Assembly (NCBI GenBank): GCA_044226015.1
Contig: JBGAHS010000001.1
Location: forward strand, 320,001-384,000
Direction: 5' to 3'
DNA: 64,000 bases
DNA from: Candidatus Obscuribacteraceae bacterium
GTDB taxonomy: Bacteria; Cyanobacteriota; Vampirovibrionia; Obscuribacterales; Obscuribacteraceae
Part shown: piece by piece, positions 3,653-43,845 of the stretch
How positions within the stretch are numbered: position 1 is the first letter of the stretch
How the letters are laid out: every line of letters begins with the position of its first letter
Translations under genes and position numbers: made by a program
Notes under the pieces: generated by a model
Databases searched by the model: none
Told to the model about the DNA's origin: nothing
The model's input: the letters and a program-made list of their open reading frames with translations, nothing else

Positions 3653-3763
3653 GGGGATTGATCGCGCAATGGGCATGCCAAAAATATGCCAAAAATTTGA
3701 CCAGACTTTGCCAAGAGATAAAAGTAGTATCTCCTCATCGGGGTTTGGTTGGAGGATTTAGAG

Positions 3764-4273
3764 ATGGATTGGGAGCGTCAGTCACATTCGAACGATCAAT
3801 TTACCAGGAACGAAGGACGGCAAATTGCCAATGCCCTAGATAGTGGAAATTTGGGCTGGGCTCAGCAAATGATCAATCGCGACATGGACCTGTTTCGCGG
3901 TCAGCCCTGTGAGCAAGAGAAGTTATTGCATGCTATCGAACTTTATGATCGCAAGGGTGTCGGAGCCGATATTGAAGTTTACCGAGACAACTACAACCGA
4001 GTGAACTGGCAAGTCTCCGAAAACCGCCCCATGCCGTACAATGGGCAGTCCCCATGCGATCGTTATCAAAATTATCCCTGCCGTCCACCCCAGCCAGAAT
4101 ATCGTCCTTATTATGAAGGTCGCAACTACGGTTACCAGGGACGTGATTATGGATATCAAAGACCCGATGCCGGTTCGGCAATTGTTGAAGGGCTCGCCAT
4201 TGGTATGGGGGCAGCAATTGGCCAGCAAATTATTCGCGGTGCTTTCGGTGGTGGGCATCATCGCCACAGATAA
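3764..4273 (+). CDS. Hypothetical protein with Tyr/Gln/Arg-rich repeats and a C-terminal Gly-rich helix
   Basis: Long ORF with a GGAGG-like SD, YGYQGR repeats, and a downstream terminator. Confidence 0.7.
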   Translation: MDWERQSHSNDQFTRNEGRQIANALDSGNLGWAQQMINRDMDLFRGQPCEQEKLLHAIELYDRKGVGADIEVYRDNYNRVNWQVSENRPMPYNGQSPCDRYQNYPCRPPQPEYRPYYEGRNYGYQGRDYGYQRPDAGSAIVEGLAIGMGAAIGQQIIRGAFGGGHHRHR

Positions 4274-35027: not shown

Positions 35028-35930
35028 ATGAAAATACTGGCGGCGGTTGACACTACCAAGCACTCTCAGAATGCTCTCAAATGCTTGAAGGGGCTAAACC
35101 TTAATCAAGATAGTGAAGTCAAGCTTGTCAAAGTTAGGAAGGGCGACCCCGGCAAAGGTGAAGCAGAGTCATACCTGCAGAAACTAACCGAGCAGTTAAA
35201 GAATGAACTCAACTGTAGTGTAAGTTACGAGGTTTTAGAGGGAGATCCCAAAAACAAGATTGTTGAAGCAATCAAAAGCTTCACAGCCGACCTTGCACTG
35301 TTGGGAACCCGTGGTCATAAGGGCATGGAATTGATGCTCTTAGGGAGCGTTTCGCAAGGCGTGTTGATGCAATCTCCTTGCCCTGTTCTCATAGTGAAAA
35401 ACAATGATGAGGACGAGTCGGGCTTGGGAAGTTTCCAGCGCATCATTCTAGCTGCAGATAATTCTGATTACTCGCAAGCTGCGTTGAATTGGCTCAAGAG
35501 ATTCAAGTGGAATGCGGATGCCTCGTTCAAAATTATTACTGTGATTCCGCATCTTTTTGAAAGCTTCGAAGATGAACACACTACCAGTATGACCAGCATT
35601 TTGGATCAGCAGCAAAGATTGCGTGAAGCTGCTGAGCGGCAACTGGAGTCTATGGCACGTTCTCTGGAGTCTCATTGTGGCTCTGAAGTGAGCATTGAAA
35701 TCACAGAAGGTGATCCCCGCGAAGAGGTTCTTCGTAGCGCCTCTGCTTGGAATGCCGATCTGATCGTAATGGGCTCTCATGGACGCACTGGACTTACCAA
35801 GCTCTTGTTGGGCAGCGTATCGCAGGCTGTTGCTCTTCATTCCGATTGCGCCGTAGCTATCGTTCGTGGGTTGGTGCAAAAGTCTAAAGTGATGCAGCAG
35901 ACAGGACGCTTCATCAAGCCTGGTAAGTAA
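35028..35930 (+). CDS. Tandem-domain universal stress protein
   Basis: Two USP domains with GTRG...LGSVS and GSHGRTG...LGSVS. Confidence 0.95.
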   Translation: MKILAAVDTTKHSQNALKCLKGLNLNQDSEVKLVKVRKGDPGKGEAESYLQKLTEQLKNELNCSVSYEVLEGDPKNKIVEAIKSFTADLALLGTRGHKGMELMLLGSVSQGVLMQSPCPVLIVKNNDEDESGLGSFQRIILAADNSDYSQAALNWLKRFKWNADASFKIITVIPHLFESFEDEHTTSMTSILDQQQRLREAAERQLESMARSLESHCGSEVSIEITEGDPREEVLRSASAWNADLIVMGSHGRTGLTKLLLGSVSQAVALHSDCAVAIVRGLVQKSKVMQQTGRFIKPGK

Positions 35931-36032
35931 AGCAAGATCGTCCCTTACTCGCGAAGAGATTTAAAATACGAAACCCCGCTTGTGGCAGGGTTCCGTAAAG
36001 GGTAAAGGCTTGGGTTCGTTTGTAGTAATAGA

Positions 36033-36095
36033 TTAGCCGAATGGGTTTAGATTCAAAATGTAGAAGAGAGCAATCTTGCTTGCATAAATCTGCAC
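36033..36095 (-). CDS. 20-aa peptide, element copy 1 (MQIYASKIALFYILNLNPFG, GTG start)
   Basis: AAGGGTG SD-like sequence upstream; ORF length conserved across all five copies. Confidence 0.5.
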   Translation of the reverse strand: MQIYASKIALFYILNLNPFG

Positions 36096-36308
36096 GGTAT
36101 ACACCCTTTGAAAAAAACAGATTGCCTGGCGCTGCATTGCAGCAGGCTCTCGTTCCGTTTGATGTTTCGATTGCTTTTATTAGCGGCTAGCACTGCTTAG
36201 AAGAATTCGATCCCCTCGGTACACTCTATTAAAGCTTTAAAATACGAAACCCCGCTTGTGGCAGGGTTTCGTAAAGGGTAAAGGCTTGGGTTCGTTTGTA
36301 GAAGTAGA

Positions 36309-36371
36309 TTAGCCGAATGGGTTTAGATTCAAAATGTAGAAGAGAGCAATCTTGCTTGCATAAATCTGCAC
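36309..36371 (-). CDS. 20-aa peptide, element copy 2 (identical to copy 1)
   Basis: Same sequence and context as copy 1. Confidence 0.5.
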   Translation of the reverse strand: MQIYASKIALFYILNLNPFG

Positions 36372-36595
36372 GGTATACACCCTTTGAAAAAAAAAACAGA
36401 TTGCCTGGCGCTGCGCAGGCACATTACAGCAGGCTCTCGTTCCGTTTGATGTTTCGATTGCTTTTGTTAGCGGCTAGCGCTGATTAGAAGAATTCGATTT
36501 CTTCGGTACACTCTATTGAAGCTTTAAAATACGAAACCCCGCTTGTGGCAGGGTTCCGTAAAGGGTAAAGGCTTGGGTTCGTTTGTAGTAATAGG

Positions 36596-36658
36596 TTAGC
36601 TGAATGGGTTTGGATTCAAAATGTAGAAGAGAGCAAACTTGCTTGCATAAATCTGCAT
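36596..36658 (-). CDS. 20-aa peptide, element copy 3 (MQIYASKFALFYILNPNPFS)
   Basis: ATG at the position equivalent to the other copies; TAA just before the conserved core. Confidence 0.5.
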   Translation of the reverse strand: MQIYASKFALFYILNPNPFS

Positions 36659-36722
36659 CATGGGCCAGTCAGAATACAAAGTAGCTGTACTTCTATGATA
36701 TGCTGGCAGTGCTAGTTGCTGG

Positions 36723-37026: not shown

Positions 37027-38436
37027 TTAGTCTGTTTGTAGATCTTCGTTTTTGACACGTTTGAGATTGAACGAAAATGCTGCACCGCCCGTGGTTGCGT
37101 CTTCGACCCAGATTTTTCCGCCTTGAAGTTCTATGAGTTGTCGACATATGTATAGTCCCAGTCCTGTCCCTGTGATCACATGGTTAGAGCCCACATCTTC
37201 GGATTTGAATCTCTCAAAGATACTCTTCTTCCTTGCGTCGGGCACCCCAGGTCCTTCGTCCGTGATCGTAATAGTCACAGTCTCTGCTAACACATTTTCT
37301 GTTACAACAACGGCAGAGTTGCTGGGCGAGAACTTAATCGCATTTGATATCAGGTTTGAGAAAATGTGCGATAGGTGCCCAAAGTCTGCCAGCACTATTG
37401 TTGAAGATTCTGGAAACACCACTCGAATTTGTTTTAGAGCAGCAAAATTGGAAAGCATTGTGTTGCATTGTTCATACAAATCTGTAAGAGGAATGTACTC
37501 AAATGATGCCTGCTGGTCTCCTCCTTCCAGCTTTTCAGCTTCGAGCAGCTGATTTATCATTGCCAGGATGTTTTCGGTTCCCAATTTTGCTTTAGTAATT
37601 TCTGCTTGCATCTTTTCTGGAAGTTCTCCATAGAGTCCTTTTGATAAGGATTCCATGAAGTAGCTGATGCCTGTTATGGGAGCGCGAAGGTCGTGCGTTA
37701 CCATCGCAGCAACTTCTGCTTTTAGACGCTGGTTTTGCTTCCGTTCGCTAATATCTTTGCAAAGGCAGAAATAGCAACTTAAATTGTTTGACCATTCCGA
37801 TTGAATCTCGAGGTCAATGAGTTTGGCATGTGCAGATTTTGCGCGAACTTCTAAGGTCTTTTTGTTGTCGCCTTCTTTCACTGTCTTAAAAAAGTTGAGG
37901 AATGTGGTTGAGTCCTCTTCAGCTATTATTGAGCGCGCCGGTGTACCGAGCAATGAAGCGACACTGTAACCAAGCAAACTTTCAGCTCTCAAATTGGCTT
38001 CAATGATCTTTATTTCTTCATTGAGGCATAAGAGCAGGTCCGAGCTGTAATCTGCGATCAATCTCTCGCGTTGTCTGGCGAGTTCCAGTTCTTGAACAAT
38101 ATTTTTACTGACTTCTTCCAGATTCATGTCCTCTGATTTTTCTTTGAGTTGAGCTAACAGTTTCGCCTTCGCTTCAAGTTGGGGTTCTAGAATTTCCTTT
38201 TGAAGGATTCTTGCCGTTCGGGCACAAAGAAAAGTGAGTAGCAGCCAGCTAGCAATGCATAGTAGTGTCACCCCCAGCTGTTTGTCTGAGTTTGTGGGTG
38301 CTAACTGCAGGTTTAAAGACAGAAGGGACACAAATCCAAGCAACATTATTGCAATCAACAGCAAAAGAGGATTCTTCACAAACTTACTCGCCTCGGAATG
38401 ATTCAAGTATAGTGGACATTGATGTTCCTTGAACAA
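37027..38436 (-). CDS. PAS sensor histidine kinase
   Basis: 2 TM, PAS, VTHDLRAP, NLISNAIKFS, DEGPG, GTGLGL. Confidence 0.93.
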   Translation of the reverse strand: MFKEHQCPLYLNHSEASKFVKNPLLLLIAIMLLGFVSLLSLNLQLAPTNSDKQLGVTLLCIASWLLLTFLCARTARILQKEILEPQLEAKAKLLAQLKEKSEDMNLEEVSKNIVQELELARQRERLIADYSSDLLLCLNEEIKIIEANLRAESLLGYSVASLLGTPARSIIAEEDSTTFLNFFKTVKEGDNKKTLEVRAKSAHAKLIDLEIQSEWSNNLSCYFCLCKDISERKQNQRLKAEVAAMVTHDLRAPITGISYFMESLSKGLYGELPEKMQAEITKAKLGTENILAMINQLLEAEKLEGGDQQASFEYIPLTDLYEQCNTMLSNFAALKQIRVVFPESSTIVLADFGHLSHIFSNLISNAIKFSPSNSAVVVTENVLAETVTITITDEGPGVPDARKKSIFERFKSEDVGSNHVITGTGLGLYICRQLIELQGGKIWVEDATTGGAAFSFNLKRVKNEDLQTD

Positions 38437-38499: not shown

Positions 38500-39186
38500 T
38501 TGGCAAAAATAATTCTCGTTGAAGACGAACAGTTCATTGCTAACAGTGTCAAAAACTGGTTGGAGAATGAAAATCACACAGTCGATGTTGTAAGCAATGG
38601 CGACGATGGACTTTATCGTTTGTTGAATTATTCATACGATTTGGCGATTCTAGATTGGCAACTCCCCGGCATGCAAGGTGCCGATATTTGTCGTGAACTA
38701 CGTGCAAAACAATACGAGATTCCAATATTGATGCTGACGTCGAGATCTAGCCTGCCTGACCGATTGGAAGGCATAGAAAGTGGAGCCTTCGACTACATGG
38801 TGAAGCCCGCGTCACTGGAGGAATTGAGTGCGCGGGTAAGGGCACTTCTTCGAAGAATAACTCCTCCAGAACTTGCAAGTGTGATTGTCGCGAATCTCGA
38901 ATTGAAGAAGGAGTCGCATGAAGCATTTGTAAACAACGAAAAGCTAGCGCTCTCCCCTATAGAGTTTCAACTTCTGGAATTGTTTTGTGAAAATCTTGAT
39001 AGAACCATCACTGCCGACAGTATTGTAAGAAAATTATGGGCTGGAAAAGAAACTCAATCCAGGCAACACTTACGTGTGCATATGACACATTTACGGCAAA
39101 AGCTGAAGTCAGCCCAGTGCCAGCTTGTAATAGTCAGCCCCAGTGGTGGTGGCTATTTGGCGCAAAAACAGAGCGAGTCAGGCTAG
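38500..39186 (+). CDS. OmpR-family response regulator
   Basis: LVEDE, LDWQLPG, KP, winged-helix C-terminus; divergent from the kinase gene. Confidence 0.93.
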   Translation: MAKIILVEDEQFIANSVKNWLENENHTVDVVSNGDDGLYRLLNYSYDLAILDWQLPGMQGADICRELRAKQYEIPILMLTSRSSLPDRLEGIESGAFDYMVKPASLEELSARVRALLRRITPPELASVIVANLELKKESHEAFVNNEKLALSPIEFQLLELFCENLDRTITADSIVRKLWAGKETQSRQHLRVHMTHLRQKLKSAQCQLVIVSPSGGGYLAQKQSESG

Positions 39187-41273: not shown

Positions 41274-43372
41274 ATGGACAGACACTCACCCCGGGACAAT
41301 GAAACGCAATCGCACGAGGTTTCTGGTGCAAGCAAGGAATTCCCATCACAAGTTCGTGGTGAACTACACAATGCTGCTTATGAAGGGGCGATCAAAAATC
41401 TAAAGTGGCGTCCCCAAAATGACCCTGCTAATAAGGTTTTGAGTACACTTTCCTTTATTGATAAATCAGCGATTGTGGCAAAGGAGGGCGGCGCTGCGCT
41501 GAAAGATTCTGTTGTTGATTCTATTGTGGGCGTTCATAACATACATCTTGGTAAAGATGTTGATTTGCCTGTACCTAAGGCACTGGAGACAGTGGCTGCA
41601 GGTGCTGCAATTGGTTTCGCCTCTCGCACACTGCTTCCTCAGCTAGGTGTATTTGGTAAGTTGGGCAATGCTGCGTTGGCAGTGGCTCTTACTGCTCCGG
41701 TGGCAAAGCAGGCTTTTGATGCAGCCAATGAATTCAAGCATGCCAGAATGGAAAATGACCTTCGACATGCTTCACATGAAATGGGCGCAGTAGTTGGTAG
41801 TCTTGCAGCAAGCACACCCCTTGGTATTGCAGGCTTTAGAGCTGGTACTTTAGCTGCTGATCGCGTTCTAGTTTTGCCTTCAATGGCTGAATTCAATTCC
41901 AGCAAGGCTCAAAAATTCGATGCTGTGAATGATTGGATGCGTGAAAGAATAAATGATGGTGCGGCACATGCAAAAAATTTCGCTGTAGGTGAGAGCCGAT
42001 ATCCGGGCTCTCATGGCGTCGCTGAACAGTTCCCGCAAATTACCGATTCCTTGCGCAATGGAATTAAGGGGACTGATTACGCTTTGCCGACAGTCAAGCT
42101 GTCTGAAAATATAGGAAAGGACGCCCGCGTGTTGGTTGTTACAGGTCATGGTGTTGAGGCACCGGAATTTACTGAAGTCGTGAAAGCCATGAAAGGTGCC
42201 GGTGCTGAGGTTACTGTAGCAACTCCAGATTGGACATGGGATTATCAACCAAAAAATCCTGGTAAAGTCACACTGGCTCAATGGTTAGCGAATGACCACG
42301 TTCTGCAGGGCGATATCTCGGTTTCGAATGCGGCCAAGATGATGAGTGAGGGTAAATTTGATGCGATGTATATTCCAGGCGGCGCTGGAAACACTGCGGC
42401 TATAAGAACAGATTCGGCGATTCAAGCTCTAGTCAGGCAGTCACTTCAACAGAAGCTCGACACATGGACAATCTGTCATGGAGGCCAGGTCTTTGTTAGT
42501 GCTTTAGAGAAAAACTCGGGCATTAAGCTAACCGGTTCTGGCGATATAACTGCTCAAGATTTGCCAAACGCAGGTTTCGTTGTTCCGAAGGATCCTGTTG
42601 TGTTTGACTCGACTCATAAAATACTGAGTGGGAAGGATCCAAGTGTCTTGAACGAATTCATCACCGCCATTGGTGACAGATTCAAGAGTATACAAGAACG
42701 GAAACTTAGTCCGGTAGCAGCTGCTCCTAAGCCGTTCTCAACACCAGTTGAGCTGCTGGCGCAATCAATTGCAGAGCGTCCTCCTGTGCCATCGGCTTCA
42801 GAGCTTCGCTACCCTGGAGCAGCGCCAAGTTATCCTCGTGGTCTTCGAGCCGAGTCCTCTGCTGTTTCGGGATATCCAGAAGGGCTGGACAGTTGGAAGA
42901 GAACGGGACCCCGAGATACCGCCGTTGATACCAGTGCTGCGAAGATTCCACAGGGTGATACCAGATATCCTCAAAATAATCCCAACTATCCAAAAGAATT
43001 AGGTGGACCCGGTGCAGCAGCAGAAGTTCCCGTTCCAGCTGTTTCGGGATATCCAGAAGGGTTGGACAGTTGGAAGAGAACGGGACCCCGAGATACCGCC
43101 GTTGATACCAGTGCTGCGAAGATTCCACAGGGTGATACCAGATATCCTCAAAATAATCCCAACTATCCAAAAGAATTAGGTGGACCCGGTGCAGCAGCAG
43201 AAGTTCCTGTTCCAGCTGTTTCGGGATATCCAGAAGGGTTGGACAGTTGGAAGAGAACGGACCCCGAGATACCGCCGTTGATACCAGTGCTGCGAAGATT
43301 CCACAGGCTGATACCAGATATCCTCAAAATAATCCCAACTATCCAAAAGAATTAGGTGGTCCACGCAAATAG
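41274..43372 (+). CDS. DJ-1/PfpI-family domain fused to a divergent copy of the shared N-terminal domain, with C-terminal 59-aa repeats (1-bp frameshift near 43260)
   Basis: GVEAPEF, FDAMYIPGG, ICHG; the ORF as given stops at 43355, while restoring one G gives ...KELGGPRK-TAG at 43372. Confidence 0.85.
42861..43359 (+). repeat. 177-bp near-perfect tandem repeat (about 2.8 copies)
   Basis: Units start at 42861, 43038 and 43215 (GCTGTTTCGGGATATCCAGAAGGG...). Confidence 0.95.
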
Positions 43373-43429: not shown

Positions 43430-43571
43430 GCCTTCTATGGAACTTTTTCCTTGCCTTAAATGGAGTTCGTGCTGTCTGCTCGGCCGACTTGGTAGAGATT
43501 TAAAATACGAAACCCCGCTTTTGGCAGGGTTACGTAAAGGGTAAAGGCTTGGGTTCGTTTGTAGTAATAGA

Positions 43572-43634
43572 TTAGCTGATTGCTAATGCTATCGAAATGT
43601 AGAAGAGAGCAAAATTGTTTGCATGAATCTGCAT
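43572..43634 (-). CDS. 20-aa peptide, element copy 4 (MQIHANNFALFYISIALAIS)
   Basis: ATG..TAA, 63 bp, homologous to copies 1-3. Confidence 0.5.
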   Translation of the reverse strand: MQIHANNFALFYISIALAIS

Positions 43635-43782
43635 TGGTTTCTTCGTTCCTCAGTTGCTAATGGTTTGTCCTTGAATTTGTGCTGGTCCGGTCGGTTGACT
43701 TGGTAGAGATTTAAAATACGAAACCCCGCTTGTGGCAGGGTTCCGTAAAGGGTAAAGGCTTGGGTTCGTTTGTAGTCTAATA

Positions 43783-43845
43783 TTAGGCTGAGCTAAGTAA
43801 TCGAAGTAGGTGTAAGTGAGCAAAATAGCCTGTGTATTTCCACAT
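43783..43845 (-). CDS. 20-aa peptide, element copy 5 (MWKYTGYFAHLHLLRLLSSA)
   Basis: ATG..TAA, again 63 bp despite strong divergence; retains F8-A9. Confidence 0.45.
   Translation of the reverse strand: MWKYTGYFAHLHLLRLLSSA

Follow-up and report, generated by a model that had tools for sequence, protein, structure and literature searches.

Three near-identical units lie in tandem on the minus strand of the window (the whole 64,000-nt stretch of DNA analysed) at 35956-36661, with start-to-start spacings of 276 and 287 nt and 93-96% identity. The first-pass annotation had flagged this threefold element, and the core and hairpin sequences it quoted match exactly. Each unit appears to be a stand-alone small RNA (sRNA) gene with its own promoter and intrinsic terminator. 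The predicted RNAs occupy 36526..36586 (5' arm 36563-36586, hairpin 36530-36560, then a U-tract; covariance model 87.2 bits), 36239..36299 (arm 36276-36299, hairpin 36243-36273; 88.5 bits) and 35963..36023 (arm 36000-36023, hairpin 35967-35997, also found by terminator scan; 87.2 bits), all on the minus strand; their +1 positions, 36586, 36299 and 36023, were inferred from the -10 box. The covariance model placed two further copies, both missed at first pass, on the same strand within 43502-43773, one at 43713..43773 behind a diverged promoter (43780-43845) and one at 43502..43562 with a promoter at 43569-43634, convergent with a DJ-1/PfpI gene. Together with one copy on contig C3 and one on C1, the source genome (8.19 Mb, 13 contigs) holds seven core copies.

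The array lies in an mrp-usp-recN region. The usp gene (35028..35930, plus strand; Pfam Usp), used as a synteny marker, is convergent to the array, as had been claimed. Upstream are a PAS histidine kinase gene (37027..38436, minus strand) and, divergent from it, an OmpR-type regulator gene (38500..39186, plus strand), both identified by family-library matches; no evidence supports this pair as the controller of the array, and the copies of other carriers have different neighbours. A terminator scan also found a second, weak hairpin with a T-tract in the spacer (36392..36421, hairpin 36402-36421, minus strand; counterpart near 36111-36135). It was reported earlier and is present, yet its fold is not better than that of shuffled sequence (z -0.5). 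It has no match in relatives by BLAST over 41 genomes and is possibly a lineage-specific, insulating terminator. The DJ-1/PfpI gene (42740-43355) ends in tandem repeats of about 60 codons, the last of which seems to change frame.

The predicted RNA is an exposed arm on a terminator hairpin. It would run for 61 nt from +1, beginning with 26 unpaired bases and continuing through a 13-bp hairpin to four U. For two array copies the minus strand folds at -20.9 and -21.4 kcal/mol (z -4.2 for 36526..36586 and -6.2 for 36239..36299; 0 of 200 shuffles as good), against z +0.3 and -1.6 for the plus strand, and the frequent G-U pairs in the stem fix the strand. The fold agrees with the minus-strand RNA proposed at first pass, and the middle copy does swap one G-U pair for A-U. 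Across copies the terminator stem covaries, with 96.9% of cells paired and two-sided changes at 13 of 13 pairs, compared with 0 of 500 shuffles and 35-52% in slid controls; the alignment behind these figures was fitted to the covariance model and includes two partial reverse-strand rows among 50. Arm positions 1-18 are near-invariant and 19-24 vary a little, an invariance that arises partly by selection, the copies having been collected with positions 3-18. The arm keeps its sequence unpaired while stem, spacer and neighbours diverge.

A cis role for the RNA is unlikely. As an attenuator or regulated 5' leader it would control read-through into the next gene, a role that would suit the short U-tracts of the terminators and the same-strand gene that comes next for 12 of 39 genomic copies (13 once one spurious ORF is removed), in 7-8 cases within 135 nt. 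The other copies do not fit: another copy follows 19 of them, a convergent gene 7 (or 6), and nothing called 1. The same-strand genes are mutually unrelated in family and sequence appearance, leaving no constant downstream gene, and the earlier statement that no same-strand gene lies downstream holds in the window but fails for the relatives' copies. The alternative fold suggested for the upstream segment can be drawn, but the terminator fold beats it by 4-9 kcal/mol, and no leader peptide is conserved. An attenuator is therefore very unlikely.

The core is preceded by a sigma70-type promoter with two operator-like boxes. In a gap-free alignment on the first A of the core, a -10 box (TAnnnT; 36593..36598, equivalents at 36306-36311 and 36030-36035, minus strand) stands six bases before +1, the sigma70 signature; T-12, A-11 and T-7 reach 98, 98 and 100% (genome-weighted, 46 unique copies), and the middle positions vary. 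The proximal box, TG..N9..ACAT, spans -50 to -35 with its centre at about -42.5 (36621..36636, equivalents 36334-36349 and 36058-36073, minus strand); ACAT at -38..-35 is kept at 93-98% per position, and TG lies at -49/-48, with G-48 at 83%. The distal palindromic box, of CTGC-N8-GCAG type, spans -72 to -57 with its centre at about -64.5 (36643..36658, equivalents 36356-36371 and 36080-36095, minus strand) and differs in genomes G003 and G005. The sRNA promoters contain no recognisable -35 box. Box centres at -42.5 and -64.5 without a -35 hexamer fit an activator-dependent promoter of class I/II activation.

This promoter bears directly on the peptide gene that the first-pass annotation placed ahead of each array copy. 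The 63-bp frame it described (ATG or GTG to TAA; 36596..36658, 36309-36371 and 36033-36095, minus strand) does exist, and a 20-codon frame is open in all five window copies, but its supposed start and stop codons are the opening triplets of the distal and -10 boxes, respectively, at a distance of 60 nt. A type I toxin-antitoxin or small-peptide locus of the Ibs/Sib or Ldr/Rdl kind would nevertheless look similar. SIB/ibs and LDR/ldr of E. coli are tandem intergenic repeats with a short ORF and a terminator, an arrangement the array outwardly shares; its four distinct peptides have GRAVY values of 0.31-1.19, two being fairly hydrophobic (0.93 and 1.19), and an SD-like stretch precedes some copies. 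Unlike those loci, however, the array's ORF is not conserved. Among 34 promoter regions taken from other genomes, 0 combine start, stop and open frame; CTG occupies the start position in 16, a stop at -12 is found in 6, and 9 carry internal stops. The first-pass annotation had itself proposed asking whether the frame survives elsewhere, and in most other copies it is lost. Alignable copies in the own genome show 3, 9 and 11 non-synonymous codon differences and 0 synonymous ones, and conservation by codon position (0.65, 0.61 and 0.51 bits) has no codon-position pattern. The RNA is on the strand of the frame and downstream of it rather than antisense, and the plus strand does not fold. A promoter scan gave no promoter on either strand. 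Since the conserved positions inside the supposed ORF are those of the sigma70-type promoter, we reject it as a gene: judged by its sequence, the 20-codon frame is a promoter read as codons. With the upstream frame not conserved, the predicted 61-nt transcript would be non-coding, and a toxin-antitoxin or peptide locus becomes highly improbable. The array is a case of promoter sequence passing for a conserved peptide ORF.

The promoter signature is recovered independently of the source genome. A matrix trained on 34 promoters of other genomes, with the own genome held out, ranked four window copies first genome-wide and in register; the fifth window copy scored 17.8, and the copy on C3 fell below the cut-off of 13. 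Matches above 15, 17 and 20 number 22, 12 and 5 in the own genome versus 7, 2 and 2 on the reversed sequence. About 14 protein genes share the two-box architecture, against 2 in the reversed control, and by the starts of their sequences they look mostly unannotated. The regions upstream of recA and recN have no obvious copy of the boxes, and a crude pattern search caught no lexA-like gene. Two variant copies (L146:5778-5847 and L175:1493-1561) have the -10 box about 5 nt nearer the core and would lack the first ACAAA bases, which suggests that the working part of the sRNA is positions 6-24.

The RNA occurs in seven of eight genomes of one Obscuribacterales genus, with 1-8 copies each over up to four loci. 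By BLAST over 41 genomes, the core is present in six of the seven other genomes of the genus and in 0 of 33 others. Six of the seven carriers have 3-8 copies, the fragmented G004 yielded one, and G001 (same genus, 4.2 Mb, 91% complete) yielded none. An exact 17-mer search of a species-level collection returned 75 stretches, 16 of which continue into the motif, all titled Obscuribacterales or Obscuribacteraceae; the other 59 lack the rest of the motif, and chance alone would yield about 69. Five more stretches came from a metagenome scan. The collected copies number 48 (46 unique), plus one more in G007. With the covariance model on 101 family genomes, full-length matches above 37 bits are confined to the seven carriers apart from a single one in G071; we rejected this 41-bit match as a homolog, the 62 nt available holding no promoter signature. 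Matches outside the genus are mostly terminator-only, the region behind hslO in five non-carriers holds no copy, and a promoter-plus-seed pattern run over 107 genomes gave only scattered single matches outside the genus, near control level. Rfam gave no match at E up to 5 for the window stretch or up to 1 for five loci. The Rfam, genome-wide and relatives' searches proposed at first pass were thus carried out, with no Rfam family found and copies in one genus.

Two other sets of matches surfaced in these searches. The 17-mer matches in intergenic DNA of Acidobacteria and Planctomycetes (L037, L049, L066, L069, L085, L091, L100) often share a few upstream bases, which suggests an unrelated repeated element. 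The covariance-model search also met, in other genera, three further non-coding blocks that are conserved and end in terminators (L189 and L190; L195, L196, L198 and L199; L201, L202 and L204).

Copies recur at the same loci and have multiplied at different ones. The mrp-usp-recN region carries them in the own genome, G006 and G007; a position behind hslO or before an MglA-like GTPase gene carries them in G002, G003, G005, G006 and G007. Five carriers each have a single variant copy with six extra conserved bases before the hairpin. Arrays of 3-6 copies lie at the mrp-usp-recN locus in two species and at the hslO/MglA-like locus in three, so that, judging from synteny, expansion took place more than once. 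Recent tandem duplication at 93-96% identity would also be expected of a mobile or neutral repeat (a MITE, IS end or REP-like element). Against this stand the mere seven copies in 8.2 Mb, the syntenic loci common to several species, the selective pattern of conservation and the lack of a terminal inverted repeat around the unit. The first-pass annotation had named a match to a MITE or IS end as evidence against its reading. Searches of 72,556 plasmids and 50,697 phages returned no match, and 24 viral 16-mer matches all score under 20 bits. A mobile or neutral repeat is scarcely credible, and stand-alone sRNA genes remain our reading of the units.

Conserved complementarity points to ribosome-binding regions of mRNAs. 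We computed duplexes of the 24-nt arm against -60..+40 of each start for 5961 crudely called own-genome genes (mean -10.5, sd 3.3). This ranking alone does not go beyond shuffles, and nine candidate genes were followed into relatives. There the pairing persisted for two families and was intermediate for HU; the remaining six genes failed or gave weak sites. The target statistics are subject to related genomes, mononucleotide shuffles and crude gene calls, and G-rich leaders favour any C-rich RNA.

Family 1 has predicted sites in all seven carriers. Its proteins, about 110 aa long, end in a zinc-finger-like C-x3-H...C-x2-C pattern; the own-genome member is C11:946413-946739 (108 aa), and at the 50% cluster level the family has 193 relatives. 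Duplexes in all seven carriers reach -24.1, -22.0, -22.2, -19.7, -20.8, -30.9 and -30.1 kcal/mol; in the seven nearest homologs from non-carriers the range is -7.6 to -18.9 kcal/mol. When the own genome is excluded, the mean is matched by 0 of 1000 shuffled arms and the worst value by 1 of 1000. The sites in G003 and G005 form 16-bp helices ending 4 nt before the ATG. All six site differences between the own genome and G005 improve pairing, which is not explained by choosing candidates on the own genome. The helices in G002, G006 and G007 are only 7-8 bp. With accessibility included, carriers range from -10.3 to -21.0, overlapping the non-carrier G041 at -11.7. A family-1 paralog in the non-carrier G001 has a site of -20.2, which is mostly absent from the carrier orthologs of that paralog.

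Family 2 comprises proteins of about 145 aa with a glycine-rich C-terminal helix (own gene C4:272721, 145 aa). Its duplexes, scored in carriers only, run from -15.1 to -31.1 kcal/mol, with a 15-bp helix in a G002 paralog. The window itself holds a candidate target from this family, a plus-strand paralog at 3764..4273 (169 aa) preceded by four TGCC/TGAC repeats at an 11-bp period (3676-3713) and a 9-nt complementary site beside the SD (3740-3748); its duplex of -15.7 kcal/mol ranks 402 of 5961. Neither family has a Pfam, NCBIfam or PDB assignment, and Atlas leads are below 0.9. On this comparative pairing we lean towards both small-protein families being true targets.

The same RNA genes could instead make a protein-binding decoy, following CsrB/RsmY-like logic, with copy number setting the titration capacity. 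The repeated expansion of dose and the two ACCC motifs in the arm would suit such a role, as would near-invariance over 18 nt, which exceeds the usual need of one seed. A decoy would not account for the complementary sites of 15-16 bp at ribosome-binding regions in three genomes, ending 4-13 nt before the ATG; nor is there a repeated hairpin-loop motif or an RNA-binding-protein gene constantly beside the copies. We regard the decoy as rather unlikely and retain base pairing with mRNAs as the working reading.

The other candidates fared less well in relatives. The strongest own-genome site, C8:65477, reaches -31.5 kcal/mol (with accessibility -27.7, against -17.2 for the next), where the best matches of eight shuffled arms span -24.6 to -29.7 kcal/mol. 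Its gene has a homolog in only one of seven relatives, with a site of -19.4, so it cannot explain genus-wide invariance of the arm and was rejected as a genus-wide target. The leader concerned (C8:65420-65477; L137:3420-3480) precedes an unannotated 130-aa gene and has five GGGT motifs, with 20 of 23 positions complementary to the arm; GGGT multiplicity in leaders is not clearly exceptional. It could be a lineage-specific target or a sponge. For HU, five carriers give -17.1 to -21.5 and 28 non-carrier homologs average -10.6, but the non-carrier G001 reaches -16.7. Fur and fabF were dropped, their sites not being kept in relatives; gltA and C9:96594 are weak there, and the site in an S1-like gene exists in the own genome and G007 only. 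An 11-nt match to 16S rRNA is no better than shuffles and is broken in carriers G002, G005 and G006, and was set aside. Next to fur lies a gene for a 427-aa protein (C4:349159; L140:2160-3440). This protein occurs in 21 of 21 tested genomes of the order and in 0 of 9 others from the class; it has several paralogs and matches no Pfam family.

Families 1 and 2 share a promoter of their own. Three to four TGCCA repeats at an 11-bp period precede a -10 box, also in non-carrier genera, a feature noticed after both families had been picked. The TGCCA-repeat motif is undescribed; it has few sites per genome, occurs in several Obscuribacteraceae genera and has 0 matches in reversed controls (loci L338-L355 and L465-L502). 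Such repeat geometry is OmpR/PhoB-like. Only three called own-genome genes have the promoter, and they rank 4, 34 and 402 of 5961 as targets. Picking genes by the TGCCA promoter alone in five carriers gave 30 matches, of which 26 distinct sites were examined and 20 had an ORF. Their mean duplex is -18.7 versus -14.3 for shuffles (1 of 500), and 7 non-carrier genes average -14.2. Ten of the 20 reach -19 or better and three reach -30 or better; of the 5961 own-genome genes, 85 and 1 do so. Any site at -30 arises in 0 of 400 shuffles, and ten sites at -19 arise in 2 of 400. The two families supply the signal; the remaining ten genes show no excess (72 of 500 shuffles), and two of these ten look like distant family-2 members. 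G001 has neither the RNA nor an exact TGCCA match, and a single TTTGCCA box defines no enriched set (p 0.11).

A separate block behind a TGCCA-repeat promoter lies near the family-1 gene in two genomes. At G005:C13:46268 (L481) and G003:C132:11782 (L484) the promoter is followed by about 130 nt without an ORF, a conserved block that carries the same-sense ACGAACCC motif, and a long terminator-like hairpin. The G003 block has no Rfam match. This block, seen in G005 and G003 only, is a possible second small RNA.

These observations define a real and undescribed family of multicopy genes, predicted to encode small RNAs, in one Obscuribacterales genus. We found no published description of this RNA or of sRNAs of this lineage in Rfam or in the literature searched, which excluded supplements and most subscription journals; the motif itself appears in no paper there. 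Of the options left at first pass, the evidence supports the sRNA family and does not support a peptide, a type I toxin-antitoxin locus or an attenuator. Most probably the genes form a family of base-pairing translational repressors of the anti-Shine-Dalgarno type. An activator would bind the two boxes at about -64 and -42 and turn on the sigma70-type promoter; the C/U-rich 24-nt arm, exposed on its terminator hairpin, would pair with G-rich ribosome-binding regions and block translation. A cyanobacterial-type Hfq (Pfam Hfq_1) is encoded. The best-supported predicted targets, families 1 and 2, are both expressed from TGCCA-repeat promoters, and one signal would thereby silence the output of a second regulon, with tandem duplication raising the RNA dose. 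We put forward more tentatively a two-regulon RNA switch, in which an activator-induced, dose-amplified sRNA would shut off the small proteins of the TGCCA regulon while copies expand independently and sites re-evolve toward 15-16 bp.

Computationally, the genes have the attributes of the sibling sRNA class: multiple similar copies, own promoter and terminator, a non-coding product and conserved complementarity to trans-encoded mRNAs. Sibling sRNAs such as Qrr1-5, csRNA1-5, OmrA/B and PrrF1/2 are several near-identical genes per genome under shared regulation (PMC4211561). As far as the parts of that account drawn on here go, the present family differs in having no sequence relationship to them detected through Rfam and in its restriction to one uncultured genus. 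LhrC1-5 of Listeria monocytogenes are also multicopy, with activator-dependent promoters that have conserved upstream elements, and a C/U-rich single-stranded motif pairs with SD regions (PMC4132741). The family resembles LhrC, so far as the portion of that source used describes it, in copy number, predicted activator dependence and a C/U-rich anti-SD motif. LhrC has two stem-loops, three UCCC sites and LisRK as regulator, whereas here there is one hairpin, one continuous 24-nt arm and no UCCC.

NsiR1 of Nostoc/Anabaena is an sRNA of about 60 nt from a tandem array in which each copy has its own promoter with a regulator motif, and it pairs with 5' UTRs (PMC9045159). It is HetR-dependent and heterocyst-specific; its 12 copies share one locus, and one of them is antisense to hetF (PMC9045159). 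Within what the consulted part of that account covers, our family is alike in its predicted length of about 60 nt, tandem copies, own promoters and 5' UTR pairing, in a relative at phylum level. It is unlike NsiR1 in its 1-8 copies over up to four loci, its promoter boxes and consensus, which differ from a HetR/DIF1 promoter, its unlinked predicted targets, and its neighbours, which are usp, a kinase, PfpI, hslO and recN rather than hetF. Rfam holds an NsiR1 model, and the family has no Rfam match; that search and the description in the consulted part of the account set the two apart. The kind of system is well known and its range is one genus, yet it would be a compact circuit from an uncultured, non-photosynthetic sister group of the photosynthetic cyanobacteria. 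If the two-regulon switch is true, it would give a first handle on two unannotated protein families and hint at a lineage-specific state or developmental switch paralleling NsiR1.
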